A DNA stretch of 64,000 bases from a virus (taxonomy: Duplodnaviria > Caudoviricetes). Each line of letters begins with the position of its first letter. Position 1 is the stretch's first letter. Shown here one piece after another: positions 16,734 through 36,135 of the stretch. The notes under the pieces are model-generated. The model made no database searches. It saw nothing but the letters and a program-made list of their open reading frames with translations, and had not been told where the DNA came from. A program made the translations under genes and the position numbers. The stretch is from IMG/VR virus record IMGVR_UViG_3300033067_000589, positions 22,058 to 86,057 of that record; one strand, given 5' to 3'.

Positions 16734-17127
16734 TGAAAATAATGGCTCTTGGGTTGAACCAGCACATCGAGTTTTTCCTGCTGTTGAGCCAAGTATCGAA
16801 AAAAGAACTTTAGTATCTACAAAAGTTAAAGTTGCTAAGACAATTAACGATGAGGTGTGTATTGATTGTTTGCAAGATGCAGATGTGGTTAATTGTCCAC
16901 AAGGTACAACTCAAAAGTTAGTTCCTACTGGTGTTTCTTATTGCGAAGAGATAAATGGAGAGAGAACTGGATTTTCGATTACTGAGTATATTGATACGAA
17001 TACTTGTTCTGCAACATTTGGTCAAAAATTTCCTATTAAGAATCAATCAATAAACTGCGTGGTTAAATTGCCGATAACTATAAATGTTGTAAATTTAACG
17101 TGCGGTAGTGGATTGATTCCAGTTTAA
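16708..17127 (+). CDS. Cys-rich hypothetical structural protein (139 aa)
   Basis: ATG at 16708 (MSGNCNPC); about 10 Cys. Confidence 0.55.
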   Translation: MSGNCNPCNENNGSWVEPAHRVFPAVEPSIEKRTLVSTKVKVAKTINDEVCIDCLQDADVVNCPQGTTQKLVPTGVSYCEEINGERTGFSITEYIDTNTCSATFGQKFPIKNQSINCVVKLPITINVVNLTCGSGLIPV

Positions 17128-17138
17128 AATAACAAGAG

Positions 17139-17474
17139 ATGCTAAAAGAAATATTGTCCTTGATAAACTTGTCAGCAAGAGAAATTCTCTTGACTCTAAG
17201 TATAACCTTAAATGCTGGTCTTGTGATAGCTTATCACGATAATTACAGCAAAAGAATTGAGGACATAAAGACATTAGAGAATCAAGTTAGAGCAAGGTAC
17301 GAAAAGTCAATAGAAGAAATTACGATGTCAAACTCTAAACAACTTATACGTTGTGCAGAAGAGAAAGAGGCAATACTTAGGTCTAGTTTAATTAAGATTG
17401 ACTCGATTGAAAGAAAGACAATCGACTTGTACAGGAAGTATGAACTTTTAAACAATAGCGTTAATAAGAGATGA
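17139..17474 (+). CDS. Single-TM coiled-coil protein (holin/spanin-like?)
   Basis: Hydrophobic ILLTLSITLNAGLVIAY followed by a coiled coil. Confidence 0.4.
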   Translation: MLKEILSLINLSAREILLTLSITLNAGLVIAYHDNYSKRIEDIKTLENQVRARYEKSIEEITMSNSKQLIRCAEEKEAILRSSLIKIDSIERKTIDLYRKYELLNNSVNKR

Positions 17475-17686
17475 GAAAAGTAGTCATTGTATCGGGTGTA
17501 TTATTGGTGGTGCTTGTTGCCTCCACATCGACTGGGAAAAAAGAACCAGAAGAATTAATACGGATAAAAACAAGCATAGAAAACACCGAAAAAACACTCA
17601 GTAAAATAGACTCATTATCTATAATTGTTGAAGAAAACATTGCACTAATTGAAAGAGATAGAGAACATACAGGAACTCAGGAATAG
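17471..17686 (+). CDS. Signal-anchored small coiled-coil protein
   Basis: MRKVVIVSGVLLVVLVAS N-terminus; ATGA coupling. Confidence 0.45.
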   Translation: MRKVVIVSGVLLVVLVASTSTGKKEPEELIRIKTSIENTEKTLSKIDSLSIIVEENIALIERDREHTGTQE

Positions 17687-18035
17687 AAAGGGCGGAAAAA
17701 GCCTAGCTATTGTAAAGCTACTTGGAAAACAGGTGGTAGGAGATGGCTATGCTGGTACTTTTTATTGGTGTTCAGAATGTACTCAAAGTGATGATGGCAT
17801 AAGTATAATTAAAAGCAATTTATCAGATACTGGTAGGTGGATTAGGGCATCTCAAAACGAATATCTATCTGACATTTTTATAACTAATAATCAAGATATA
17901 ACTCTTGAGCAAATATTCAACGCATTTAATGTAGAACTCAGGGATGTAAACGAAAAAAGGCTAGGTTTTATTATTGATCCACACGCCAATTCTCCTGAGA
18001 TAGAAATAACAATAACCAACCTAACTTGTATATGA
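17649..18035 (+). CDS. Tailspike N-terminal-like domain protein
   Basis: GDGYAGTFYW...DDGISII...GRWIR resembles the N-terminal module of tailspikes/depolymerases; TTG start. Confidence 0.5.
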   Translation: MKEIENIQELRNRKGGKSLAIVKLLGKQVVGDGYAGTFYWCSECTQSDDGISIIKSNLSDTGRWIRASQNEYLSDIFITNNQDITLEQIFNAFNVELRDVNEKRLGFIIDPHANSPEIEITITNLTCI

Positions 18036-18373
18036 AAGTAATAAATGTAGTTACTAGAGATAACTTAGGTAATACAATAAAGTTAGGTAGATTAACTTTA
18101 GGAAAGCTGGATGTAAATATAGATAATGAAACCATAGTTGTAAATGCAAATGGCGAACTATCTGTAAAAGAAAATCTAAATTACCTAATGTATCAGAGTG
18201 TAGGTGAGCAGCAAACTTGGATAATTGAACATAACTTTGGAGAAAAGCCAATGGTTCAAGTGTACAACTTAGACAACAAGCAAGTGTGGGTAAGCCCAAC
18301 ACATACAAATGAAAATGTAGTACAGATAACTTTCGATAAACCAAGAGCTGGATATGCTCTTATAATAATATAG
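18026..18373 (+). CDS. Small tail-associated beta protein
   Basis: WIIEHNFGEKPMVQVY motif, related to the C-terminus of the next gene. Confidence 0.5.
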   Translation: MYMKVINVVTRDNLGNTIKLGRLTLGKLDVNIDNETIVVNANGELSVKENLNYLMYQSVGEQQTWIIEHNFGEKPMVQVYNLDNKQVWVSPTHTNENVVQITFDKPRAGYALIII

Positions 18374-18375
18374 AT

Positions 18376-19608
18376 ATGCCAATACCAGTTTTAGATAACA
18401 TTGACTTATCCCAAAATCAAATAGTAAATGTCGTTGTACATAAAAACGGAGAATTTCCACTATCTCCAACCCCCATATCTGGTCAGATATTTTATAAGAC
18501 TGGAGCTAACGAAGGCTTCTATTATTATGATGGAACTACTTGGAGGGGTGTCGGAGATATTACATCAGTAAATGCTACAAATGGAGGTGGTCTTACTGGT
18601 GGTGCAAATGCAGGAGATGTAAATCTTGTAGTGAATACTGATAATACTACACTAGAAATAAACTCCGCCACTAATCAAGTAATAATTAAAGATGGTGGTG
18701 TATCTACTGTAAAGTTAGCAGATAATGCTGTTACTACTGTAAAGGTAAGTAACAACGCCATTACGCTTGCAAAAATACAACAAGTTCCAACAATGACCTT
18801 GGTTGGTAGGGTTACGGCAGGAACAGGAAATGTAGAGCAAGTTTCTATCATTACAGCAACCGATTTATCAGGGGCCAGTAATTCAAATTTAGCTACATCT
18901 CAAGCTGTAAAGACATACATAGATAATAGATTTTCTGGTATAGGTAGCCTTGTTGATGCTTATGTTCCAGCTACCAATTTTCCAACAAATCCACTAGGAA
19001 CAAAAAAGGGAGACTACTGGTATGTAACAGGGAGTGGAACGGTACAAGGTGTAGTTTTAAATAATGGTGATGTAATTATTGCAAATAAAGATGCAGCGTC
19101 TGTAACATCTTCTGCTGATTGGATATTTGTAGAATCGAACAGAGACCAAGCAACAACAACTGTATTGGGCGTAATTAGGCTTGCAACTCAAGCCGAGGTG
19201 AACGCAGGAACGGTGACTAATGCTGCCGTAGCTCCATCAACGCTTGTAGCGTACATTAATCAAAGGGTTGCTACTGAAACAATAACAGGTGTAGCTGAAA
19301 TTGCGACAACAGCCGAAGTTACGGCAGGTACAGATAATACAAGGATAGTAACTCCATTAAAGCTAAAACAATATGTAGATTCAAGTGTACTTGCAAATAA
19401 CGGAGTTGAGTTTCCGTCTGCATTAGCTAGTAGTGCCGTTATTACCCATAACTTAAATACACTAAATTTGAATGTAGACATTTATAGAGTTTCTGATGGT
19501 GCTCAAATTTTAACTGGCGTAACTCTTAATACAGTAAATCAAGTTACAGTAAATTTTGGGTCTCCTCAAGCTATAAATTCATTTAGAATTGTAATAGGAA
19601 GAAGATAA
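18376..19608 (+). CDS. Tail fibre protein (410 aa)
   Basis: ATQAEVNAGT and ATTAEVTAGTDNTRIVTPLKL fibre repeats; DGGVSTVKLADNAVTT repeats. Confidence 0.75.
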   Translation: MPIPVLDNIDLSQNQIVNVVVHKNGEFPLSPTPISGQIFYKTGANEGFYYYDGTTWRGVGDITSVNATNGGGLTGGANAGDVNLVVNTDNTTLEINSATNQVIIKDGGVSTVKLADNAVTTVKVSNNAITLAKIQQVPTMTLVGRVTAGTGNVEQVSIITATDLSGASNSNLATSQAVKTYIDNRFSGIGSLVDAYVPATNFPTNPLGTKKGDYWYVTGSGTVQGVVLNNGDVIIANKDAASVTSSADWIFVESNRDQATTTVLGVIRLATQAEVNAGTVTNAAVAPSTLVAYINQRVATETITGVAEIATTAEVTAGTDNTRIVTPLKLKQYVDSSVLANNGVEFPSALASSAVITHNLNTLNLNVDIYRVSDGAQILTGVTLNTVNQVTVNFGSPQAINSFRIVIGRR

Positions 19609-19609
19609 T

Positions 19610-22600
19610 ATGTCAATACCATTATTAGATACATTTAACATTCCAACTGGAATACTTACTTCAACAACATCTGAGTTACTACTAGCTAGGGATACAGATG
19701 GTGATGTTAAGTTATTTAATGGTGCTTCTTATTTGAGAGGTAGTGGCACTGTAAATTATTTGCCTGTTTACTCTGCAACCAATACACTTGCAAGTAGTAT
19801 ATTACTCCAAACTGGTGGAAATATAGGAATTGGATTAACTACGAACATTGACCATAAGTTAAAAGTTGGTGGTGGTATTTATGGAGACTACTTACAGGTA
19901 AATACAGCTTATAGTAACGGAAATGTTCCGGGTAGGTTTTCTTGGGATTCTGACCATGATTTAATTGAGCTTGGTCTTAACAATCAATTTTCTGCAAAGT
20001 TACCTCAAGATGAAGTTTGGTCATGTATTGCTGCTACTACTATAACAAAAGGACAGCTTGTTTACGCTAGTGGAACAGTAGGAAGCTCTGGTAAGATACA
20101 AGCAACTCCTTTTATTGCAGATGGCACTATACCAGCAAGATTTTTAATTGGTGTTGCCACTGAAAACGCAGCACAGGGCGAATCTTTCCATGCAATGAGG
20201 TCTGGTATATTAAGAGGCATAAATACCTTTATGTACACAGAAGGTCAAGATTTGTGGGCATCTATAACAACAATAGGCGGTTACCAAACCACTGCGCCAG
20301 TAGCACCTAATCAAAAGTTATCGGTTGCTTTTGTAGTTGCAAGCCACGCTCAGAACGGAGAATTAGCTATACGTATTAACAATGGATTTGAATTAGGTGG
20401 AGCTAGTGATGCACAAATTACATCACCAACTACGAATCAATTACTTAGGTATAATAGTAATCGTTGGGAGAATTGGACACATAATTTTGTTAGTTTGTCC
20501 GTAAATGGTACAGTAAATAGGATAGCTAAGTTTACAGGTGCTACTACTTTAGGAAATAGTTTAATTCAAGACGATGGTACAAATGTATTGATTTTTGGCA
20601 ATATAGGAATAGGTGCGAGTGCTAATAGTGCTATATCTTTAAATTTAAGGAGAGATTTAATAGGTAGTGGTACGTTTGGTATCCTAAACGCATCAGGGGG
20701 GTTTGAGAACGGTTCTGATAATATTGGTATAGACAACGAATTTAGAATAAACTCTAATATAGGTATAAGTAGTTATATTGCATTTAGGTCAAGGAATACA
20801 ACAATACCCTCTGGGGCAACGAATCAGCTTTATGTTGGATTTCAAAACTTAAATATAGCCTTTGCTGCTGCTAGTACAGTTTATTCTTTTCAAGGGCAAG
20901 TTTCGTCAGGCACAAATCGTTGGAACTTGTACATGGACGGTACGGCTATAAACTACCTAAGAGGAGGTTTGCTGCTTAACACTACATCAAATACAGGCGA
21001 ACAATTAATAGTTAATGGTAACGCAAAAATCACTACAATGGCTACCGGTACAAGTACTGATGAAGTTGTAACAGTAACAAGTTCGGGTGTTTTAAATAAA
21101 AGAACAGTAACTGCCTTACTTAGTGATATAAATGGTATAACAGGAACAGGAACTACAAATAGGATAGCTAAGTTTACAGGTGCTACTACTTTAGGAGATA
21201 GTTTAATTCAAGATGATGCTAATCGTGTAGGTATAGGTGCGTTATTTACTAACACGAGTTTAAATATAGCACTCGGGTTAAGTCAAACTAATAGTATAGG
21301 ATTACTTCAACGTGGTACGGTTTCTATTGTATCTGGAGGTGATGTTATTGGTGTATATAATCAATCAAACATTTCTTCATCTGTAACAAGTGGTAATTAT
21401 ACTCATTTCGCAGCAATACAAGGGAGTGTTACTGGTGCATCTTTAACAAATCAAACTGGATTCTTAGCAGGATTTAATCTAAATCTAGGAACTAATAATT
21501 ATGGATTTAGAGGTTTACTTTCATCTGCAACTGGCCGTTGGAATTTGTATATGGATGGTACAGCTAGTAATTATTTAGCAGGAAGATTAGTTATTGGTAC
21601 TTTAGTTGATTTTGGTTTAAATACTGATAATGGTCTAAGATTGGCTGCATTAAGAAATCACGTAACTCCATCAACCAGCGGAATAAGCATAGATACGGTT
21701 GGTGTATTTTCAAACAACGCATCAACTAATGGTAACGCTACTGTTTCTATATTATCAAGGTCATCAGGAACTCAACGATTAAATTTTGGAAATCAACTTG
21801 TAGAAAGTGCATCATTTATATCTTCCGTCTTGGGTGATTTAAGATTTGGAACAGGAAGTGGATCGGTAGATGCTGTCGAAAGAATGAGGTTATTAGCAAG
21901 TGGATCTTTAGGGTTAGGAACTACATCTCCAATCTCTTTGCTTGAGTTATCTAATGATTCTAGTGGTAGTATAATAAAACTCACAAGACCAACATTAGCA
22001 TCAAACAATCTAGGTGTTGGTGCTATTTCATTTGGTGATAGCACTGGATATAAAGCAGCAATAACGTCAAGGGTGTCAGCTACAAATATGCAAGACCTTA
22101 GATTTCATACTGGAACAGCAAATGCCTCGGTTTATAATGTTTCAGAGAGGATGAGGATAGAATCTAATGGTAATCTACTCATTGGTCTTACTATTGATGG
22201 TGGTCAGTTATTGCAAGTTGGTGGTTCAATAAGACAAACTTCCGTAACAAATAATCTTTTATTTGCCGATTCAAATGGTGTACTTACAGGATATGCAAAT
22301 ACAGCAAGTATAGCACTAGGCACAGGAACTGGCGGATATATAGTCAGGTATTCTGGTACTGGTGTAACTCAAAACATCGGCAATTCAGCATTATTTCAAT
22401 CCGGTAGCAATATAGGGTTAGGTAAAACAAATCCCGGTTATACATTTGATGTGAATGGAGATATTGGGGTGTCAGGTACTTTATCTGTCTATTCTGGTGC
22501 ATCTAGCGTTAGTATAGTATCTAGTATACAGGGGGTTATATCTACTTATATCAATAACTCTATTAATGTTTTTGGTGATACTAATTCATTTATAATAAGT

Positions 22601-22987
22601 AATTCCAATTCCTTACCTAGTGGTGGTTCTGGTTATAGGGTACAAATAGATTCTGGTACAACAGGAGGTAATGGTCTTTTTGTGAGGGGAAATATTTACT
22701 CAACTGCTACGATTACATCATTCTCTGATATTCGACTAAAAAGTGAACTAGAAAGAATAGAAAATGCCATTGATAAGATAAAGAAAATTAGTGGTTATAC
22801 CTATTTATTTAATGATAAGAAAACACTGGGCCTTATATCTCAAGAAGTGAAAAATATAGCACCAGAAGCTATTGAAGAAAAAGGTGGATATATGACACTG
22901 AACTATCAAGGCTTCTCTGCTGTAATTGTAGAAGCAATCAAAGAATTGTCTAGTGAAATTCAAAAATTGAAAGAGAAATGCCAATAA
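19610..22987 (+). CDS. Long tail fibre with C-terminal intramolecular chaperone (peptidase S74-like)
   Basis: C-terminal SDIRLKSELERIENAIDKIKKISGYTY...LGLISQEV; ERMRI repeats; internal duplicated modules. Confidence 0.85.
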   Translation: MSIPLLDTFNIPTGILTSTTSELLLARDTDGDVKLFNGASYLRGSGTVNYLPVYSATNTLASSILLQTGGNIGIGLTTNIDHKLKVGGGIYGDYLQVNTAYSNGNVPGRFSWDSDHDLIELGLNNQFSAKLPQDEVWSCIAATTITKGQLVYASGTVGSSGKIQATPFIADGTIPARFLIGVATENAAQGESFHAMRSGILRGINTFMYTEGQDLWASITTIGGYQTTAPVAPNQKLSVAFVVASHAQNGELAIRINNGFELGGASDAQITSPTTNQLLRYNSNRWENWTHNFVSLSVNGTVNRIAKFTGATTLGNSLIQDDGTNVLIFGNIGIGASANSAISLNLRRDLIGSGTFGILNASGGFENGSDNIGIDNEFRINSNIGISSYIAFRSRNTTIPSGATNQLYVGFQNLNIAFAAASTVYSFQGQVSSGTNRWNLYMDGTAINYLRGGLLLNTTSNTGEQLIVNGNAKITTMATGTSTDEVVTVTSSGVLNKRTVTALLSDINGITGTGTTNRIAKFTGATTLGDSLIQDDANRVGIGALFTNTSLNIALGLSQTNSIGLLQRGTVSIVSGGDVIGVYNQSNISSSVTSGNYTHFAAIQGSVTGASLTNQTGFLAGFNLNLGTNNYGFRGLLSSATGRWNLYMDGTASNYLAGRLVIGTLVDFGLNTDNGLRLAALRNHVTPSTSGISIDTVGVFSNNASTNGNATVSILSRSSGTQRLNFGNQLVESASFISSVLGDLRFGTGSGSVDAVERMRLLASGSLGLGTTSPISLLELSNDSSGSIIKLTRPTLASNNLGVGAISFGDSTGYKAAITSRVSATNMQDLRFHTGTANASVYNVSERMRIESNGNLLIGLTIDGGQLLQVGGSIRQTSVTNNLLFADSNGVLTGYANTASIALGTGTGGYIVRYSGTGVTQNIGNSALFQSGSNIGLGKTNPGYTFDVNGDIGVSGTLSVYSGASSVSIVSSIQGVISTYINNSINVFGDTNSFIISNSNSLPSGGSGYRVQIDSGTTGGNGLFVRGNIYSTATITSFSDIRLKSELERIENAIDKIKKISGYTYLFNDKKTLGLISQEVKNIAPEAIEEKGGYMTLNYQGFSAVIVEAIKELSSEIQKLKEKCQ

Positions 22988-25900
22988 CACAAGCACCAAA
23001 CGAGATACGCACTATTGATATATTAAGAGAGCTTGGTTATACAAATCCAAATATTGATATATCTAAAAAGATAGAATTGGATTTAAGATTAAATGGAAGC
23101 ATTATTGAGGTAAAAGTAGAAGATGTATTTATTCCATTAAATATGTGTTCCACTTTTCTTCCAGACCCAAACAAACCGCATGAATTAGAACACTGGTATG
23201 GATATGATCATTTAGAGGTTGGTGATTGTTGTGGTGTGTATGACCCACTAACAAACTCAAATTTTGGAAAGATACCAACAGGAGATAGGGTTATTGTGAA
23301 TAGCGACAAATCTGTTACATTTTATGATTTAGGTAGTAACCCTAGAATCGACCCATATAAGACACCATCTATAAATGGTATGTCGTTAAATCCTGCTGTT
23401 TTATCGACAGAATTTAATGGATTCTATGAATTTCCGAATACAAGATTTTCATCAGAGCCTACTCTTATTTGTAATACAAGTCAAATGATGACGGTGTATG
23501 CTGAATCTGAAAATATCCTTACCAATTCATTAACTAAATTATATAGAAAGTCTGGCTCTTCCCTAGTTCCATTAACAGGAACGACACAATATAGATACGT
23601 AAGAATTGGTAATTATGTGTATGTAGTGGATTTTAATAGTACAGGTAATGTACTTATTCGAGATAATACTATCTCCTGTGGAAACCCATCTACGCCAGAA
23701 GTTAATGATATAGGATTGCCAGCACCTTTTTTTGGTAAGGATTACCAAATAGTAAAGGTATCATTTAAGTCAAGTATAACATCTGTTGGTGAGTGGTTCA
23801 TGTTTTTTGTAGGTAAAGATTCTAACAATAATCAACTAACAGGAAGTGTACAAAGAACCCAAGCATTAGAAGCTCAATATAGGGAATTTACATTTGATAT
23901 GTCAAATACTCCTAATTGGAACAATGCCATTATAGAGAATGTTTATTTTCTATTTCTTCGGTCATCTATGTTTGACTTGTCACTAAAGAACTTTACAATA
24001 TGTTCAAAAGATGGATTAAAAGCATTTAGTGGAGTTAGATTAGGTACTGAAATTACAATACCGGAGCAGTGGTTAAGAAATAGTCAATTTCAAGGTTCTG
24101 TAAGTGTAACCAATACTGGTAATCAAAACACATCAGGAACAATAACTATAAAGGTTTATTTTCCTAGTTCAAATATAACTTACGTAGCAACTACAACAAG
24201 TGGGTACACATATAGTTTCGCATCAAACGTACTTACAATTACCACTACAAATGTCATACAGATAGGGCAAATTGTTAATATCCCAATCAATATGACTTCT
24301 TCCGTAGAGGGAATATACACTCTTTACTCAAAAGTATATGGAGGTGGTGATTTAGTAAGTACAAACGAAACGAATGGAGCTAGGAGTAAGGATAAACAAA
24401 TACAAATATTTGCTACCCTCCCATGTGTTCCTATAAATTCAGTAGAAATACAAGGTCAAAATATAGTTGATTTTGATTCGCTTCAAACATATAATGTATT
24501 TTACTCTGGTGGTAATTATGCACCAACAATTCTTTGGTCAGTAGTTGGTGGAACTATTGTAGGGTCAAATAATGGAAATCAAGTTTCAATAAGGTGGAAT
24601 CTGAATCCAGCCACATCAGGTAGTGTATCTGTAAGATTAGATAATCAATGTACCACAAATCTAAACACAACATTATCGGTAACTAGAAGATCTTATGGAA
24701 ATGATTATCAAGTAAGAACTTCTGTTAAAAATAACTGTCCAGTTGGGCAGTTTGGCACAGCATATACAACAGAGGTGCAAGCTAATACCTATTTTGCAAA
24801 AACAAAACAAGAAGCAAATGATTTAGCTATTGCTTTTTTAAACGCAAATAGCCAAACAAATGCGAATAACTTTGGTACTTGTATTATTGGGTGTAATAAT
24901 ATTACGAATGTAACAATAAGTGGAAGTACTACGGTAGGTTGGCAAGCATCGGCAGTATATACTGCAACTGTTACAGGGGGCACTGGGGTGAAATACGAAT
25001 GGAGTGTAACTAATGGTGTAGTTACAGGTGGACAGGGCACGAGTAGTGCTACTATACTTTTCAATTTTAATGCTTCTGGAGCTTCATTTTCTAATGCAGT
25101 GGTAACTGTTCGTGCTTTTCAAGATTGCAATTCTTCTGAAAGAAGTACTCAAAGGACTGTGAGTCCAATATTATTTACAGCTAGTGACACAAGAACCTTG
25201 AGTAAGAATAATTGCCCAACCAACTTCGAGTCAGCATCAACAAAAGAATATTTTGGACAAGTATCTTCCGCTATAAGTCAGCAAACAGCCAATGAGGCAT
25301 TAAATATATTATTTGCAACTACGCTTCAAGATTTAGCTAACACAGAGCTTACTTGTCGTCAAAGTGTATTCTTTAATGCACAGGCATCAAGAACCTACAC
25401 AAAGACTTGTCCTAGCGGATATACTCCATCGCAGCAATCATATACTCATATTGTTCCAGCAGGTAAATATAGTGCGCCTACTCAAGCAGGTGCAGATGCT
25501 CTAGCTACGGCTGAGTTGGATAGTATTGATGTAAACCAATATATTTCATGTGTGTTTACCGGTACGGTTACGGCAAGCGCGTCTATCCGAGAAATTAATG
25601 TATTTGCAGGAAATCCAACGGCATCTAACTTTATTAGAGTTGATGTGTTTATATCAAATGGTTTAGGTTTTGTGTCAAGTGTAAATATGTTTGATACGTC
25701 TAACAATCAAATGGTGGCATCTGGCTCTCCATCATCCAGTTTGATACTCACGCACAATGGGGCCGTCTCTGTTTTAACTACACCCGGAACGTCCATATTT
25801 AAAGAATATAGGGTGGACATGGGATTGACTGGTGGAGGTACAATAAGTGTATTTGCAAGTGCAGTAATAACGAATAAAGATTATTCAAATGGATACGCCA

Positions 25901-26388
25901 TTACCTATGGTTATCAAAATAGAAGAAATCCATTATTAGGGCAACCTAGAAGATTATTGACCATAAGAATATCACCTCCTTTGTACTTTTACGAGCAATC
26001 ACTTAATTTTTATTTAGGATTTATACGATGGAGAATTGGTACATCTGGTGCTTGGAATAATTTTACTAGGATATTGTCAAGTGGCGTAGGTGCTCCAGAA
26101 TTGACAAATGCGCCTATTGTGTCATTATTGGGAAATACAGGAAATTTAGTTGATATTCGTAATGTAACTACGATGGCAACAGATTCTGGGTCTGGACTAC
26201 CATTAGAATTTGTAAGAATAGTTTTGACAGGAGAGGTGCTGGATTCTGATTTACCAACTTATCAAAATATAAATTTGGAGATAAGGTATTTAACTCAAGT
26301 GTCATCAAGTTCATCTAAGGCTCACTATACGGCACTTTCACCACCATTTATTTACAGCGTAAATTACACAGATATAGATTTAGGATAA
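22978..26388 (+). CDS. Multi-domain adhesin-like virion protein with PKD/Ig-like and DUF5977-like repeats (1136 aa)
   Basis: Repeats of the type KNNCP...YTTEVQANTY...QEANDLA; V.I.G...Y.WSV.GG repeats. Confidence 0.65.
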   Translation: MPITQAPNEIRTIDILRELGYTNPNIDISKKIELDLRLNGSIIEVKVEDVFIPLNMCSTFLPDPNKPHELEHWYGYDHLEVGDCCGVYDPLTNSNFGKIPTGDRVIVNSDKSVTFYDLGSNPRIDPYKTPSINGMSLNPAVLSTEFNGFYEFPNTRFSSEPTLICNTSQMMTVYAESENILTNSLTKLYRKSGSSLVPLTGTTQYRYVRIGNYVYVVDFNSTGNVLIRDNTISCGNPSTPEVNDIGLPAPFFGKDYQIVKVSFKSSITSVGEWFMFFVGKDSNNNQLTGSVQRTQALEAQYREFTFDMSNTPNWNNAIIENVYFLFLRSSMFDLSLKNFTICSKDGLKAFSGVRLGTEITIPEQWLRNSQFQGSVSVTNTGNQNTSGTITIKVYFPSSNITYVATTTSGYTYSFASNVLTITTTNVIQIGQIVNIPINMTSSVEGIYTLYSKVYGGGDLVSTNETNGARSKDKQIQIFATLPCVPINSVEIQGQNIVDFDSLQTYNVFYSGGNYAPTILWSVVGGTIVGSNNGNQVSIRWNLNPATSGSVSVRLDNQCTTNLNTTLSVTRRSYGNDYQVRTSVKNNCPVGQFGTAYTTEVQANTYFAKTKQEANDLAIAFLNANSQTNANNFGTCIIGCNNITNVTISGSTTVGWQASAVYTATVTGGTGVKYEWSVTNGVVTGGQGTSSATILFNFNASGASFSNAVVTVRAFQDCNSSERSTQRTVSPILFTASDTRTLSKNNCPTNFESASTKEYFGQVSSAISQQTANEALNILFATTLQDLANTELTCRQSVFFNAQASRTYTKTCPSGYTPSQQSYTHIVPAGKYSAPTQAGADALATAELDSIDVNQYISCVFTGTVTASASIREINVFAGNPTASNFIRVDVFISNGLGFVSSVNMFDTSNNQMVASGSPSSSLILTHNGAVSVLTTPGTSIFKEYRVDMGLTGGGTISVFASAVITNKDYSNGYAITYGYQNRRNPLLGQPRRLLTIRISPPLYFYEQSLNFYLGFIRWRIGTSGAWNNFTRILSSGVGAPELTNAPIVSLLGNTGNLVDIRNVTTMATDSGSGLPLEFVRIVLTGEVLDSDLPTYQNINLEIRYLTQVSSSSSKAHYTALSPPFIYSVNYTDIDLG

Positions 26389-27424: not shown

Positions 27425-27601
27425 ATGGCAACGAAGAGTAAGGTAAATGCTGCTGGTAATTATACAAAACCATCTATGAGAAAGTCTTTGTTTAATAAAA
27501 TAAAGGCAGGAAGTAAAGGTGGAAGGCCGGGGCAATGGTCGGCTCGTAAGGCTCAAATGTTAGCTAAGGCATACAAATCCAACGGAGGGGGATATAAATG
27601 A
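27425..27601 (+). CDS. Basic microprotein, DUF5872-like (58 aa; not in the ORF track)
   Basis: Hand translation MATKSKVNAAGNYTKPSMRKSLFNKIKAGSKGGRPGQWSARKAQMLAKAYKSNGGGYK; ATGA overlap with the next gene. Confidence 0.8.
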   Translation: MATKSKVNAAGNYTKPSMRKSLFNKIKAGSKGGRPGQWSARKAQMLAKAYKSNGGGYK

Positions 27602-27834
27602 AAAAGCCACAAAAAGATTTAGTCAGATGGACAAAGCAAAAATGGAGGACTCCTAGCGGTAAACCATCTGGAGAAACAGGAGAGGTTTATGCACCATCTG
27701 CCACGATAAAATCATTGAAGTCATCTAGTTCTGGTAGAGCTAAATTAGCAAGAGCTACTGCTGTAAAAAGAAAAGCAACCAAGGCAGGAGTTCAACACGC
27801 AAGGCATGGATTACATAAAGGTAAAAAGAGATAG
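27598..27834 (+). CDS. Basic microprotein (78 aa)
   Basis: WTKQKWRTPSGKPSGETGE motif; K/R-rich. Confidence 0.75.
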   Translation: MKKPQKDLVRWTKQKWRTPSGKPSGETGEVYAPSATIKSLKSSSSGRAKLARATAVKRKATKAGVQHARHGLHKGKKR

Positions 27835-27836
27835 AT

Positions 27837-28154
27837 ATGAGTAAAGACCCTAAATTAGCAAGAGCAGGTGTTAGTGGTTATAATAAACCAAAGAGAACAC
27901 CAAGTCACCCTAAGAAAAGTCACGTAGTTGTGGCTAAGGAAGGCTCAAAGACCAAATTAATTCGCTTCGGACAACAGGGAGTATCTGGGTCTCCAAAGAA
28001 AAAAGGCGAGTCGGAAGCGTACAGAAAAAGAAGAGAGAGCTTTAAAGCAAGACACGCTGCAAACATAAAGAAGGGTAAAATGTCTGCGGCTTATTGGTCG
28101 AGCCGTACAAAATGGATTGTAGCCTTCATATTTAACTTATTAATTTTTATATAA
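27837..28154 (+). CDS. Basic small protein (105 aa)
   Basis: YNKPKRTP...KSHVVVAK...LIRFGQQG...FKARH...SAAYWS; K/R-rich. Confidence 0.75.
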   Translation: MSKDPKLARAGVSGYNKPKRTPSHPKKSHVVVAKEGSKTKLIRFGQQGVSGSPKKKGESEAYRKRRESFKARHAANIKKGKMSAAYWSSRTKWIVAFIFNLLIFI

Positions 28155-28155
28155 A

Positions 28156-29100
28156 ATGGCATCAACAGGAACAATAACATTATCAAACGCAGCACTAGGC
28201 AATATATCTAGTGTGTCTGTAAAAATAAACGGAGACCCTACCGAAAGGTACATATCTCTTAATCAACAAACAGGGCTACTTACGTTTAATTCATTAGATG
28301 ACGGATTTAGATACACGTATGTAATTTTACTTACATTTAATGACCAAAGGGTTGCTAGTGCTATTTTTAGCCATGGCTGCGGAGAAGGTACGACCACTCA
28401 AGGCACAACAAGTACAACCTCTGGAACAACAACATCTAGTACTACTACATCTAGTACAACAAGTACAAGTACAACAGCATCTAGTACTACTACACCAGTC
28501 CCAACCACTCCATCTTGTCAAGAACCCACGTCGGTGACTATTCAGGGTAATTTAACTCCACTTATTAACACTACTGAAACTTACACATTATCAGTAGTAG
28601 GAGGGCAAAACAATACTTACGTTTGGACTGTTAGTGGTGGTACTATATCTGGCTCATCAACATCAAATACAGTAACAGTAATATGGGGAAACAACACATC
28701 TGTAACATCAAGCATATCTGTATCAGTCGGGTGTACGGGAGGAAGTAACCCTGCAATAGATTTTGATTCATTTGTACTTGGAGTTCCAGAAACAACTCCA
28801 GCACCAACAACTCCAGAGCCTACTACTACTCCAATTCCTTTTATTCAGCTATCAATTAGTTCACAAGAGTACTTAACATCAAGTGAGGCTTGCGCTGCAC
28901 TAGAGGTTACCATAAATATTTACAGAAATAACAATGGTGCTACAATTACAACAGGAGTTGGTGTATTCCAAGAATCTACACTAACTAATCCTTATGTACC
29001 GGCAAACACAGCGTCTTGGTATTTACTCCAAGAGGGCGTAACTAGGTATGCAGTGCAAATTAATTCATTTGGTACAATATCACAACTTATAGCTTGTTGA
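28156..29100 (+). CDS. Ser/Thr/Pro-rich (mucin-like) multidomain protein with a PKD-like domain
   Basis: TTSTTSGTTTSSTTTSSTTSTSTTASSTTTP and TTPAPTTPEPTTTP linkers; PKD-like repeat shared with the 22978 gene. Confidence 0.7.
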   Translation: MASTGTITLSNAALGNISSVSVKINGDPTERYISLNQQTGLLTFNSLDDGFRYTYVILLTFNDQRVASAIFSHGCGEGTTTQGTTSTTSGTTTSSTTTSSTTSTSTTASSTTTPVPTTPSCQEPTSVTIQGNLTPLINTTETYTLSVVGGQNNTYVWTVSGGTISGSSTSNTVTVIWGNNTSVTSSISVSVGCTGGSNPAIDFDSFVLGVPETTPAPTTPEPTTTPIPFIQLSISSQEYLTSSEACAALEVTINIYRNNNGATITTGVGVFQESTLTNPYVPANTASWYLLQEGVTRYAVQINSFGTISQLIAC

Positions 29101-30032
29101 TGAGATATATATGCGCACAACCTGCTACTCCTTATTTTGAGTGGCAGGTTGAAGTTATGATAAATAACTTTATCGAAAAGGGCGTGAATCCTACTAAGAT
29201 GGATATACTCGTATCTTACGATACGGAAATTCCTCAAAAGTGGCTAAAACTTAGAGATGGATATAGGTTTGTAAACTTTCATTTTTACAAAGACGAAAGA
29301 GAACATAAACACTATCAGCCATCAATCTACTTTTATTTACTCAAGAAACACTTTGAGGCAAATCCTTGGTTAAAGAGTGAGACTTTATTCTTACACGATT
29401 CAGACATTTTATTTACCAAGAATTACAACTTTTCTTTCGCTACTAATCCGGGAGATAAGAAGTGGTATCTATCAAATACTAACTCATATTTGAATTACGA
29501 TTATATTCAACAGAAGGGTAATTATATCTATCGAGATATGTGTTCTATTGTGGGTATCGACCCATTAGTTCCACGGTTAATGAAATCCCACTCTGGAGGA
29601 GCGCAGTATATAGTCAAGGATACAAATTATGATTTTTGGGATATAGTAGAAAAAACAAGTGTAGAGTTGTATGATTATTTCGTACAATCCGAATCGCAAT
29701 TTAAAAAAGATAATCCAAATGTAGAGCCAATTCAAAAATGGACAGCAGGTATGTGGTCTATACTTTGGAACGCATGGCTGGCAGGGCATGAAACGGTGGT
29801 GGATAGTCGTATGGATTTCTGTTTTGCAACATCAGATATATCAGAGGTGGATAGGGTAAATATCTTTCACAATGCAGGAGTAATGCAAAGTCACACTGAC
29901 CTTTTTAGGAAGACGGCATATACTCAACTTTACCCATACAATATAGCACCAGAACCAAGAAGAGATAGTGCTAGTTGGTATTATTGGAATGAAGTTCAAA
30001 AGGTATCAAAGAAAACAGTTTTGGCAAATTAG
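29100..30032 (+). CDS. GT-A glycosyltransferase resembling GT95/GT96 (HPAT/SGT1)
   Basis: CAQPATPYFEWQVEVM N-terminus, HDSDILF DxD motif, KWTAGMWS; TGATG overlap with the upstream gene. Confidence 0.65.
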   Translation: MRYICAQPATPYFEWQVEVMINNFIEKGVNPTKMDILVSYDTEIPQKWLKLRDGYRFVNFHFYKDEREHKHYQPSIYFYLLKKHFEANPWLKSETLFLHDSDILFTKNYNFSFATNPGDKKWYLSNTNSYLNYDYIQQKGNYIYRDMCSIVGIDPLVPRLMKSHSGGAQYIVKDTNYDFWDIVEKTSVELYDYFVQSESQFKKDNPNVEPIQKWTAGMWSILWNAWLAGHETVVDSRMDFCFATSDISEVDRVNIFHNAGVMQSHTDLFRKTAYTQLYPYNIAPEPRRDSASWYYWNEVQKVSKKTVLAN

Positions 30033-30046
30033 TTTAGGTTGAGTGC

Positions 30047-30086
30047 ATATTGGTGGTTTCATTTTGATTCCACCAATATATTTTTT
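30047..30086 (+). terminator. Intrinsic terminator
   Basis: ATATTGGTGG/CCACCAATAT stem plus T-rich tail. Confidence 0.7.
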
Positions 30087-31083: not shown

Positions 31084-33519
31084 ATGGCATACAAATCAAT
31101 ATTAGACAGAATTGACTACCTAGAATTTCCAACAATTCTTTGGTCAGAGGATTACGATAAAGACCCGGAGTTGCTGAATATGCTTGTTCAGCACATTTCA
31201 GACTTTATGCTATTTAACAGTAATGTACCTTTTGATGATGCCAAAAACCCATCAGTTAATATTGATATATTTGAAGGGAATACACAGTCTGGAGAATTAA
31301 GAGAAGAGTTTGAAGGGTTACTCTATACTTATGGAGAAGAAGGCCCAGCCGAGCTTAATGATTATAAATTCCACCGTACAGCATTTGAGGCTATCGAAGG
31401 TACACTTATTGGTATGCCACTCAAATTTACAATGCACAATGTATCTCAAGCATTTACTGATAAGCAACTCACGAAAATGTCAGAGAAAGCTGCTGCTTAT
31501 ATCCGTAATGCAGCTATTGATGCAATAATGCAACAGACAGGAGAGAATTTAGAGGATTTAAAAGACCCAGATGCAGAAGCTCCATCAACAATGGAAGAAC
31601 TATTAGAGGAGCTAGATGGCAGTCAGCAACTAGAATGGGTAGCTACAAGATTACTACTAAATCTTAGCCGAAGATATAACACAGAAGATGAACTACGCAA
31701 AGCAAATAAAGACCATTATGTAAGAAATTGTATGTTTGCTCATGTAGATACAGAAAGTGCTACACCACAATTAAAGTACGTATCTCCTGACCAAATAAAA
31801 TTTATCTCTCCTGTTTCAGTCGAAGACATGGATGATCCAAACATTATTGCATGGAGTATAAACAATTACATTTCTTTAGAAAACGCATTGAGGAAATATG
31901 GTCAAGATTTAGCTGAGCAAAAAAGCCTTCAAGAGATTATTGATATTGTTGTAAGGCTTAGACAAAATGGTAATATCAATGGTGCTTATGACCCAACTAG
32001 GCTAGCTACAACCTACCTTACAGAACAGGTACAAGGCGACCACGGATATTCTGTTACTATCCCATTTGAATCTACCTTTTTCCCTACATCTGACCTAACA
32101 AATCATAATGGGGTTTGTGCTATCCTTGAGCAAAAGATATACTTCAAAGTAATCAAGCAAAAGAAGTTTATCGTGAAGGTAAACGGAAAAAACCCTACCG
32201 CTCAAGAAAGGAAAAGAATGAAGTTTGGTATCACAGTGGAGGGTATTACATATAAAAGGGTTGATGATAAGTATAAGGCAAAGCCGGGTGAGTATTTAAT
32301 CAAGAAGCCATACGAAGAGATGTGGGAGGCTACAAGGTTAGCTCATAATACAATTATTCGTGTTGGCCCATATAAGTACCAAACAAGATACGAGAAAGAC
32401 CAAAATAGAGTATTCCCTCCGGTTATTGGACTTATATCTCATACTGAATCTTTAGTTAGTGTAAGTAAATCATTCTGGAAGATGTACAACTCTTTCATGT
32501 ACAAGGCTGATGAGCTAACTAAACTAACAGGATCAGAAGATGTATTGATGATTGATAGAGCACAATCTAATGGCGATGTGAAATCTATGCTTTACAATGC
32601 AAGAAAAGCTGGATTTGTTGAGTTTGATTCTACTCTAGTACAAGACAGAGAGAATCCACTGGCTAGGTTACACATGAATAAAGTTTCATTCTCCCCATCT
32701 GCAAAATCTGTAATGAATTATTTAGAGGCTGCTGATGCCATAAAAAGAATGTGGGGAGATATAGTAGGTATCAATGCTCACTCTTTGGGTCAGGCATCTC
32801 CTTATGACTCAAACGGAAAGGTAAATACACTTATCCAACAGGCATCTTTGATTATGCGTAGATACTATTATGAGGACTACACATTTAGAAAAAGAGCTTA
32901 TCAGAGATACACAGATATTGTCAAGAAATTCTTTGGCTCAAAGAATCAAAACATATCTATTTATTGGGGGCCACAAGAGAAAGAAATCCTAAGAGTTACC
33001 AAAGACTTATCTACATACGACATGGAGGTTTACTTGGATATGGGTACTAAGTCTATGGAAGATAAGGCGTTCTTGGAAAATATGGCTAGCATGGCACTCT
33101 CTTCTGGTGCAATGGATGTAGCTACAATGGCTGAAATTAGACTGAATGAGAACCCCACAGAAGCGTTGGCTATCATTAAATCTACTGCCAAGAAGATGGA
33201 AGAAATGCAAAATCAAAGAGCGCAACAACAACAACAAATTCTTCAAGAGAAAAATCAAATTGATAAAGCTGCTAAGGTCGATGTTCCACTTCAAAGAACC
33301 CAAATCCAGTCAGAAACAGATAGATTTATTGCTGAATTGAAAGAGCAATCTAAGAGAGCTTCTGATAACTTCAAGGGAGAGATGTATGACATTAAAGAGG
33401 CGAATGATAGACAGAAATTGTTATTAAATGCAGAGGCTGATTTAGAGAAACAATCTCAACTCCAAGAAGAACAAGCTATCATAAATGAATCACAACAACA
33501 AGCACCACCTCCAATGTAA
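31084..33519 (+). CDS. Portal protein (811 aa, crAss-like)
   Basis: Size, position before scaffold and MCP, C-terminal Q/E-rich coiled-coil barrel, WGDIVGINAHSLGQ stem-helix region. Confidence 0.8.
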   Translation: MAYKSILDRIDYLEFPTILWSEDYDKDPELLNMLVQHISDFMLFNSNVPFDDAKNPSVNIDIFEGNTQSGELREEFEGLLYTYGEEGPAELNDYKFHRTAFEAIEGTLIGMPLKFTMHNVSQAFTDKQLTKMSEKAAAYIRNAAIDAIMQQTGENLEDLKDPDAEAPSTMEELLEELDGSQQLEWVATRLLLNLSRRYNTEDELRKANKDHYVRNCMFAHVDTESATPQLKYVSPDQIKFISPVSVEDMDDPNIIAWSINNYISLENALRKYGQDLAEQKSLQEIIDIVVRLRQNGNINGAYDPTRLATTYLTEQVQGDHGYSVTIPFESTFFPTSDLTNHNGVCAILEQKIYFKVIKQKKFIVKVNGKNPTAQERKRMKFGITVEGITYKRVDDKYKAKPGEYLIKKPYEEMWEATRLAHNTIIRVGPYKYQTRYEKDQNRVFPPVIGLISHTESLVSVSKSFWKMYNSFMYKADELTKLTGSEDVLMIDRAQSNGDVKSMLYNARKAGFVEFDSTLVQDRENPLARLHMNKVSFSPSAKSVMNYLEAADAIKRMWGDIVGINAHSLGQASPYDSNGKVNTLIQQASLIMRRYYYEDYTFRKRAYQRYTDIVKKFFGSKNQNISIYWGPQEKEILRVTKDLSTYDMEVYLDMGTKSMEDKAFLENMASMALSSGAMDVATMAEIRLNENPTEALAIIKSTAKKMEEMQNQRAQQQQQILQEKNQIDKAAKVDVPLQRTQIQSETDRFIAELKEQSKRASDNFKGEMYDIKEANDRQKLLLNAEADLEKQSQLQEEQAIINESQQQAPPPM

Positions 33520-34536: not shown

Positions 34537-36135
34537 ATGACTCAAATCAAAATCCAAAATATCAAGCGTTCAACAAAGTTGAACTATGATATGAAATTCT
34601 TAGGCAACCACTTGCTCCGTGACGAAAAGGCGGTAGCTAGGGTTATCTATAAATTTGCAGGTCGTGATTCTTTCATTGGATTCCTAGCACAGTACGGTAT
34701 CTCCACAGGAGAGCAAGGTGCTGCTGGTGTAGCTAATGAAACAATCGCTGAATCGCTGGTAAGATGGAGAATTGTAGATAACACCTATGAGGCTTGCCGA
34801 ATTGTGGATGTTTCTACTGTTCCTCAAACTATTACAGCAAACACTCCATTTGAAATTTCACTTAACGAAGGTTGGGTAGATACAGATGGTTTGCTTTTAT
34901 CAAGTGATGGTAAAACTATCTTCTACGTAAGAGGTAAGAAGCCAAACTTGGGCATCATTTCTCAAGGTGTTACATACATCTTAGAGTGGCCTTCTCCAGA
35001 TCCAGCTTCAACAATCACATCTGAGATGTTGCAAGTTGGTAAGTACATGAACTACATCTCCAACGCAAAAGGCGAGCGTTCATCTACTTCTCAGGAGATT
35101 AAAATTGACCATGCAAGTTATGACTTGTTTAACGTAACTCAGGTAGTTCGTCACAAGATTTCTGCTTCTGGTCATGCTTTAAGTACAGACATCACAAATG
35201 AGATTCTTCTTTATGAAGAAGTTGATTCTGCTACGAAAAAAGCAATCAACCAATATGTACTTCCATTCTCAGGTAAGTTATTACAGAAACACTTAGAGTC
35301 TGTATCTAGCTTAATCTACTTTGGTCGTACCAACTTTGATGCTTACAACCGTGTTGTTCGTACTCTTCGTCAGAATGGTGGAGGAAACGAAATTCCATTA
35401 ATGGCAGGGGTTAAGCAACAATTTGAATATACTGAGCGTGTGGGTGAATATAACCCATTTGACTCTCCGGCACGTAACCTTGAGATTGTAGAGTCCATTA
35501 TCTCTCAGTCGAAAGATTATTACCGTAAAGAAATGGTTGATTTCATTGTTATCACTGGTGGTGGTGGTCGTGCAGTATTGAAGAAAATCCAAAAAGAGAA
35601 AACAAAACAACAAGGCATCTCGCTTCGTGTTTCTGATTCTGCTGTTGGAAATGGACAAGGCACAATCGCTGCTGGCTTGAGATGGGATGAAACATACCAA
35701 TCAGATGATGGTACACTAAAAATCATGAACACTCAGTTCTCTACGAAACCACGTGGTTTCCAGATTGACAAGAAGGTTCTTGATGGTGTGGCATACGACA
35801 TTGATGGTTACGATATGTATTTCGTGCCAATCGGTATGTCTGAAACTGTAAACGGCGCACGTACAGTTCGGATTGCAACTAAAAAGAAAGGTTCACTTAA
35901 CCGTGGTCTTGTTCTTGGTTCAATCGCTGGTATGTCAGGTTTACATGGAAACGGTATGGATATGCCTAACCTTACTGATAGTGACATGAAATTCATCAAC
36001 TCAGTAGCTAACCAACAGAACTACAAAGTAGCATCTCCTGTTGATGGTGAAGAGTTTATGGTTCTTTCTGAGCTAACAGTTATCGTTGAAAACCCAGATG
36101 ACATCTACTGGTTGAAAGCGAAATTTGACGCATAA
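34537..36135 (+). CDS. Major capsid protein (532 aa, crAss-like HK97 fold)
   Basis: Strong codon bias (CGT/GGT/ATC), FIVITGGGGR motif, position, downstream hairpin. Confidence 0.85.
   Translation: MTQIKIQNIKRSTKLNYDMKFLGNHLLRDEKAVARVIYKFAGRDSFIGFLAQYGISTGEQGAAGVANETIAESLVRWRIVDNTYEACRIVDVSTVPQTITANTPFEISLNEGWVDTDGLLLSSDGKTIFYVRGKKPNLGIISQGVTYILEWPSPDPASTITSEMLQVGKYMNYISNAKGERSSTSQEIKIDHASYDLFNVTQVVRHKISASGHALSTDITNEILLYEEVDSATKKAINQYVLPFSGKLLQKHLESVSSLIYFGRTNFDAYNRVVRTLRQNGGGNEIPLMAGVKQQFEYTERVGEYNPFDSPARNLEIVESIISQSKDYYRKEMVDFIVITGGGGRAVLKKIQKEKTKQQGISLRVSDSAVGNGQGTIAAGLRWDETYQSDDGTLKIMNTQFSTKPRGFQIDKKVLDGVAYDIDGYDMYFVPIGMSETVNGARTVRIATKKKGSLNRGLVLGSIAGMSGLHGNGMDMPNLTDSDMKFINSVANQQNYKVASPVDGEEFMVLSELTVIVENPDDIYWLKAKFDA

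Follow-up and report, generated by a model that had tools for sequence, protein, structure and literature searches.

Two adjoining open reading frames (ORFs) of a crAss-like phage, ORF A and ORF B, probably form a protein glycosylation unit, in which ORF B would act as a phage-encoded protein O-glycosyltransferase on the neighboring threonine/serine tracts of ORF A, a reading to which a probability of roughly 0.7 is assigned. Both lie on the + strand of the 64,000-nucleotide stretch of DNA analyzed here (the window), which spans positions 22058–86057 of the 86,057-bp IMG/VR record IMGVR_UViG_3300033067_000589, a record estimated by CheckV to be about half complete. ORF A (28156–29100) encodes a 314-residue protein, the candidate acceptor, and ORF B (29100–30032) a 310-residue protein predicted to be a soluble glycosyltransferase (GT) of the GT-A fold, matching the phage protein family phrog_4417. 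A glycosyltransferase coupled to the phage's own Ser/Thr-rich particle protein had been the central proposal of an earlier note made on this DNA from its letters alone, and the comparisons described below lend the proposed coupling strong support by way of the GT-A fold, the D-x-D...H pattern, the adjacency of the two genes and the joint loss of tract and enzyme in related phages. The features on which that note had relied, i.e. the two long Ser/Thr/Pro tracts of the 314-residue protein, the stop/start overlap at 29100, a terminator common to both genes at 30047 and three short motifs in the 310-residue protein, were all found.

The Gene Pair and Its Candidate Acceptor

The TGA stop codon of ORF A (29098–29100) and the ATG of ORF B (29100) have one base in common, and this ATG, not one of the upstream TTG codons, is taken as the start of ORF B because the homologues align from residue 1. 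The two-gene unit is likely closed by an intrinsic terminator on the same strand, consisting of a hairpin at 30047–30079 and a U-run that extends to 30093; the hairpin has a 10-bp stem and a folding free energy of −16.3 kcal/mol (z −3.9), and none of 200 shuffled sequences folds as well. Direct folding confirmed it, whereas a consensus terminator scan, which permits loops of 3–8 bases, passed over it on account of its longer loop. Serine and threonine together make up 34% of ORF A, the best 12-residue stretch of which is Ser/Thr at 12 of 12 positions, while all other ORFs (about 99 in the 86-kb record) reach at most 8 of 12. The adjacency of ORF A and ORF B therefore exceeds chance, as the only ORF of the record above 8 of 12 adjoins the transferase gene.

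The ORF A protein can be divided into an N-terminal domain, a first tract, an immunoglobulin (Ig)-like module, a second tract and a C-terminal domain, all encoded on the + strand. Tract 1 (T79–P119, nucleotides 28390–28512) is nearly pure Thr/Ser, ends in TTTPVPTTP and is proposed as the main acceptor region; tract 2 (P211–P228, PETTPAPTTPEPTTTPIP, nucleotides 28786–28839) is a short Pro/Thr linker and a possible second acceptor. Between them lies the Ig-like module (approximately C121–G196, nucleotides 28516–28743), which recurs twice in a 1136-residue fiber-like protein encoded farther upstream: by BLASTP, residues 121–191 of ORF A are 36% identical over 72 residues to positions 483–554 of that protein (E = 6e-8) and 32% identical over 62 residues to positions 639–700 (E = 1e-5). 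The earlier note had described this as a shared PKD-like domain; the sharing of a module is upheld by the 32–36% identity, and the name "PKD" is confirmed by no Pfam model. Searches of ORF A against Pfam and PHROG gave no match, a homologue search, saturated by low-complexity candidates, returned only three near-identical proteins, and its three domains have no relatives among the loci fetched.

Fold and Conserved Site of ORF B

Residues 1–303 of ORF B align with positions 1–292 of the 293-position profile of phrog_4417 (E = 2.1e-61), a family of unknown function, and at E ≤ 1 no Pfam family, Glyco_transf_8 included, matches the protein. The family is large, with 1930 matches in 90% clusters and at least 806 clusters at 50% identity. 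An AlphaFold2 model calculated with a 40-sequence alignment (predicted local distance difference test, pLDDT, 93.7; predicted template-modeling score, pTM, 0.91) shows a single Rossmann-like α/β/α domain, which in this predicted form superposes on solved GT-A enzymes. The structural comparison that the earlier note had proposed leads to GT-A folds as the nearest solved ones.

The three motifs are YFEWQ at residues 12–16, a single D-x-D (D100–S101–D102) and WTAGMW at residues 214–219, the last of the form W-x-x-x-M-W. The D-x-D motif (codons 29397–29405, + strand) is the proposed metal/nucleotide-sugar binding site, and H257, located in the sequence HNAG (codon 29868–29870, + strand), is proposed to supply the third metal ligand, by analogy with GT8-type enzymes. 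The 54 relatives of ORF B that were aligned, with a mean identity of 31%, show no substitution at Y72, D102, Y130, Y135, G167, M218, F240, H257, or K271, and 90% or more of them retain D100. This conservation extends to 73 multidomain relatives, in which D100, D102, and H257 are all invariant, and a further alignment likewise has these three residues invariant or nearly so. The succession D-x-D...H...K would correspond to the metal/diphosphate site of GT8-type enzymes, with the placement of the active site being read from this pattern. The maximum Kyte–Doolittle mean over 19 residues is 0.74, meaning that ORF B has no hydrophobic segment and no membrane anchor, and it should therefore be a soluble cytoplasmic protein.

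Longer relatives of ORF B carry additional GT2, Glyco_transf_7C, GT6, GT29 (sialyltransferase-like), GT25, or GT1 domains, or methyltransferases, fusions of the kind usual among enzymes for the assembly and trimming of glycans. One close relative (658 residues, 55% identical to residues 1–308 of ORF B) has a radical-SAM/SPASM module attached, which glycosyltransferases do not usually carry.

Structural and Family Affinities of the Enzyme

The solved structures that match the ORF B model are retaining enzymes of the GT8, GT24, and GT6-like groups, the closest ones being glycogenin, LgtC, and UGGT, all of them retaining; no GT95 or GT96 structure is among the solved-structure matches seen. Because the nearest solved folds belong to retaining enzymes, a retaining (α-linking) mechanism may be tentatively suggested for ORF B from its predicted model. 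Membership of GT8 in the sequence sense was ruled out, as no profile match exists (Glyco_transf_8 is not found in any of the 54 relatives at E ≤ 5) and the likeness is structural only. A sequence search of the Protein Data Bank gave no more than one weak match, and TALE-repeat matches obtained in a profile search of the same database are spurious. The structural evidence also bears on an alternative in which the tracts are indeed modified, with something other than a plain sugar: a sugar-phosphate, as in Stealth proteins and GlcNAc-1-phosphotransferases, or another nucleotide-activated group. Such a chemistry is possible, the structures favor it less, and it is regarded as quite improbable.

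The earlier note had labeled ORF B a plant/algal-type enzyme of GT95/GT96. The plant enzymes in question, the hydroxyproline O-arabinosyltransferases (HPAT, GT95; PF23452) and the peptidyl-serine α-galactosyltransferase SGT1/SERGT1 (GT96), act on low-complexity Ser/Pro-rich protein tracts and are type II Golgi membrane proteins with an N-terminal anchor. In favor of the label, HPAT and SGT1 are the nearest Pfam-labeled neighbors of ORF B in the ESM Atlas, where the PF23452 group accounts for 21 of the 30 nearest named clusters (in the cluster shown, PF23452 is found on 10% of the members), and a green-algal HPAT+ShK protein has a template-modeling (TM) score of 0.75 over 283 residues against the ORF B model, both sides of this comparison being predicted. 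In the profile comparison that the note had suggested, PF23452, with a cutoff of 23.9 bits, does not match ORF B itself, and it matches only 2 of the 54 relatives, weakly (best E = 1.3e-4), HPAT being the only Pfam family with matches in more than one of them. A six-frame search of the whole record with PF23452 likewise found no match, a result of little weight since the control genomes were silent too. Unlike HPAT and SGT1, ORF B lacks a membrane anchor and a PF23452 match, its nearest solved structures are GT8/GT24/GT6-like, and Thr runs take the place of hydroxyproline or Ser-Hyp motifs as its presumed acceptors. What is left of the label is a possible remote similarity to GT95/GT96, a weak lead drawn from predicted models.

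Association of the Enzyme Family with Threonine Tracts

The co-occurrence with Thr-rich ORFs across phage genomes, which the earlier note had put forward as a check, was assessed in the best 80 of several hundred IMG/VR contigs that carry the enzyme, a gene being counted as tract-bearing when its product had at least 10 Ser/Thr in a stretch of 12 residues. The immediate upstream neighbor of the enzyme on its own strand qualifies in 58 of 79 cases, and of the 1083 other genes 48 do so (odds ratio 60), with a rate of 0–2% for genes downstream. The proteins encoded upstream range from 105 to 2231 residues and form 11 clusters once the tracts are masked; the downstream genes form 32 clusters. That the 80 contigs are mere relatives of the present phage was ruled out, as none has the window's neighboring genes. 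Because the contigs share none of these neighbors and the downstream genes fall into 32 clusters, the pairing of enzyme and tract is not one block inherited by descent.

In every annotated phage inspected, poly-Thr proteins adjoin the homologue of the enzyme. The homologue in Enterococcus phage phiFL1A, gp51, begins at the last base of the gene for the major tail protein, which itself ends in a C-terminal Thr/Ser tag of 26 residues, and in Clostridium phage phiCTP1 the product of the gene just before the enzyme has a poly-Thr C-terminus. Lactobacillus phage iLp84 encodes, just before the enzyme, a small protein composed mostly of runs of Thr, and both its capsid and its tail-tube protein have the C-terminus TTTTTTTSK; a small poly-Thr protein also immediately precedes the enzyme in Lactobacillus phage Iacchus and in a Staphylococcus Sextaecvirus phage, and the pattern extends to Chryseobacterium phage MA9V-3, Enterococcus phage Planchet, and Arcanobacterium phage TPWB06. 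Two of these loci have peculiarities of gene structure. In Planchet, an unannotated Thr-rich frame lies between the stop codon of the capsid gene and the transferase (locus positions 7772–8001) and may be either a small gene missed in the annotation or an extension reached by frameshifting. The annotation of Staphylococcus phage vB-SscS-F1 (locus positions 5773–7925) shows the major tail protein in two pieces with a 295-residue ORF between them, and a small poly-Thr ORF follows.

A similar asymmetry is found in bacterial genomes, where a tract occurs among the six genes preceding the single-domain forms of the enzyme in 30 of 41 loci, and downstream of them in 4 of 44, against a background of 6 in 636. 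In prophages of Bacillaceae, upstream proteins of approximately 390, 105, and 210 residues carry poly-Thr C-termini in most loci, with the enzyme following the last of them; judged from their size and order, they would be the capsid, a small head protein and the tail tube, respectively.

A further comparison is offered by the orthologues of the phiFL1A tail-tube protein. Those of Streptococcus phages Javan47, Javan505, and Javan377 and of Lactobacillus phages phiJL-1 and ATCC8014 are 50–60% identical to it, and all five end after a conserved PGE(T)TG(D/E)(Y/F), just before the point at which the phiFL1A tag starts, with no poly-Thr. The enzyme family has no match in the whole genomes of these five phages, and the same search found the enzyme in three of three positive controls. 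Among these orthologous tail-tube proteins, tract and enzyme are thus present or absent together.

These observations bear on two explanations in which the tracts would not be the acceptor. In the first, ORF B would glycosylate something else, such as a polysaccharide of the host envelope, a lipid carrier or phage DNA, and its adjacency to tract genes would follow from shared late expression or mobility. Phage glycosyltransferases are indeed known mainly for DNA glucosylation and serotype conversion (PMC12619734), and a polysaccharide role for part of the family fits the two-domain chromosomal relatives from Bacteroidota (Chitinophaga, Pedobacter, and Mucilaginibacter), only 3 of 35 of which have tract neighbors. 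However, at least 11 unrelated tract proteins are encoded beside the enzyme, in many genomic backgrounds, the orthologous tail-tube proteins lose the tract where the enzyme is absent, ORF B has no membrane segment, and the Pfam listing of the 86-kb record holds no other glycosyltransferase, no sugar-pathway family and no family for base hydroxymethylation (a C5 cytosine methylase, ThyX, and a PAPS-reductase domain are listed). A role in DNA modification was ranked low in particular, with no base-hydroxymethylation family listed and the enzyme sitting among structural genes, and an acceptor other than the tracts is on the whole considered unlikely. As the two-domain forms rarely have tract neighbors, the enzyme family is not tied to tracts everywhere, which suggests that part of it has a second, cellular role. 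These two-domain forms measure approximately 570–590 residues, and some long forms of the family carry Glyco_transf_7C.

The second explanation holds the tracts to be flexible linkers that carry no modification, and the transferase to be an accessory gene with no bearing on them that merely travels on one mobile block with their genes. Secreted proteins of Bacteroidota often contain Thr/Pro linkers, and the gene upstream of the enzyme lacks a tract in about one quarter of the viral contigs. Yet the tracts of the Firmicutes phages are C-terminal tags that join nothing, orthologues encoded by enzyme-free genomes have no tags, and the enrichment is confined to the upstream side of the enzyme, so that this explanation is judged highly improbable.

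Proposed Mechanism and Weight of the Evidence

In the favored reading, ORF A and ORF B would be expressed jointly, with each other and with the structural genes, in the late phase of infection, as suggested by their one-base overlap, the common terminator and the structural context, from which joint transcription and translation are to be expected. ORF B would work as a soluble, metal-dependent enzyme in the host cytoplasm, binding a nucleotide-sugar of the host via its metal site and moving the sugar to the Thr/Ser hydroxyls of the ORF A tracts before or during particle assembly. The resulting coat may consist of single sugars or short chains, because the record, which may be incomplete, holds no second transferase. 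The outcome would be a mucin-like, extended, hydrophilic, and protease-resistant stalk or brush on a fiber-like or decoration protein; protease resistance, stalk rigidity and receptor masking, the benefits put forward in the earlier note, are speculative.

A broader form of this model would see in the pair a portable module of tag and transferase, in which one small soluble enzyme recognizes Thr runs whatever the carrier protein, so that phages of several phyla could sugar-coat their capsid, tail-tube, decoration, or fiber proteins by gaining the enzyme gene and a poly-Thr tag, and in which the family would represent, in prokaryotes and viruses, the kin of those plant enzymes by which O-glycans are initiated on cell-wall proteins. 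The balance of the evidence tips slightly in favor of this generalization.

It has to be noted that several points weigh against glycosylation of the tracts by ORF B. The acceptor is one that we infer from gene neighborhood and co-occurrence, and likewise we infer that ORF A is a virion protein from the position of its gene and a single shared module; the AlphaFold2 model of ORF A, calculated without an alignment, is uninformative (pLDDT 38). The significance of the enrichment is overstated, given the kinship, and hence the lack of phylogenetic independence, of the loci counted, and the gene calls behind it are crude (longest ORFs, greedy choice), with an arbitrary threshold for the tracts. 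The tract-free quarter of the viral contigs and the scarcity of tract neighbors among the two-domain chromosomal forms count on the same side, and the literature searched holds no mass spectrometry, glycan stain or enzyme assay on any member of the family.

Comparison with Known Glycosylation Systems

By analogy, the closest biological precedent is the virion glycosylation of the mycobacteriophages Che8, Corndog, and Myrna, the phage-encoded glycosyltransferases of which have been reported to decorate the C-termini of the phages' own capsid and tail-tube proteins (Freeman et al. 2023, Cell Host Microbe, PMC10527164, as cited in PMC12619734 and PMC13313380). The resemblance lies in the relatives of ORF B in Firmicutes phages, which adjoin capsid and tail-tube genes with C-terminal poly-Thr tags. 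The two systems differ in their hosts, which here are Bacteroidota and Bacillota and not Actinobacteria; in the arrangement of the genes, as the enzyme gene directly adjoins that of the presumed substrate in the present system; in the tracts of the window, which are internal and located in a fiber-like protein, not in the capsid or tail tube; and probably in the enzymes, the family studied here having no Pfam model and corresponding to the function-unknown phrog_4417.

Other systems are more distant. The GT8-type enzymes glycogenin, LgtC, and GlyE of Streptococcus pneumoniae are 7–11% identical in sequence to ORF B, and their acceptors and biological setting differ. The match to A64R of chlorovirus PBCV-1, a transferase acting on the major capsid protein, is weaker and partial, and concerns a eukaryotic virus with other acceptor sites and glycans. 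In the literature searched, mycobacteriophages are the only phages whose particles are reported to be glycosylated by phage-encoded enzymes, and no paper links this enzyme family or poly-Thr tags to phage glycosylation; leads concerning HFTV1 and phages of S. aureus were irrelevant. What would be new relative to known phage self-glycosylation is thus the use of another enzyme family and the simple logic of the tag.

Genomic Setting

The record is assigned to a crAss-like phage on the basis of a match to the Crassvirus muzzle protein and the presence of a tail ring protein: the former is a 1323-residue protein encoded just upstream of the window (record positions 17031–20999; E = 8e-80), the C-terminal domain of which is matched too, and the latter a match to the tail ring protein 2 family within the first 22 kb of the record. 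The listed DUF5977 and BT4734-like domains, families which we take to occur in Bacteroidota, suggest a host from that phylum. A megablast search of phage records with the 12 kb around the gene pair gave no match.

The ORF A–ORF B pair sits inside the structural module, between the tail-fiber genes and those for portal and capsid. The tail-fiber genes upstream of it (18376–26388) include one with an endosialidase-chaperone domain, and the last of this region encodes the 1136-residue fiber-like protein (22978–26388), in which three DUF5977 repeats (E = 6e-28) alternate with the two Ig-like modules common to ORF A; a PHROG search with this protein gave no match, though it overlaps the end of a clear tail-fiber gene. 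Downstream of the pair follow the portal (31084–33519) and the major head protein (34537–36135).

Directly 5′ of ORF A, at 27425–28154, three small and very basic Lys/Arg-rich proteins of 58, 78, and 105 residues are encoded, which might be DNA-binding or internal virion proteins; the 58-residue one matches phrog_17747 (E = 1e-34) and the 105-residue one phrog_7595 (E = 1e-38), both being phage families of unknown function. Elsewhere, Pfam gave no match for a giant ORF of 2646 residues at 2696–10636, and the genes in the first 22 kb of the record include, besides those for the C5 cytosine DNA methylase, ThyX, and the PAPS-reductase-like domain, genes for a patatin-like phospholipase and an N-acetylmuramidase.

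Implications

If the proposed reading is true, virion glycosylation would be widespread, extending to phages of Bacteroidota (crAss-like ones included), of Bacillota (Enterococcus, Lactobacillus, Staphylococcus, and Clostridium) and of other groups. The window would represent its simplest form, a single enzyme with a single candidate substrate in 86 kb, and as several of the phages carrying the enzyme have been cultured the idea can be directly tested. A soluble enzyme that accepts poly-Thr would also be a glycoengineering tool for the O-glycosylation of chosen proteins in the bacterial cytoplasm. For the phages themselves, sugar coats of this kind could alter the stability of the particles, their recognition by antibodies and their sticking to mucus or polysaccharides, which would be relevant both to phage ecology and to phage therapy.

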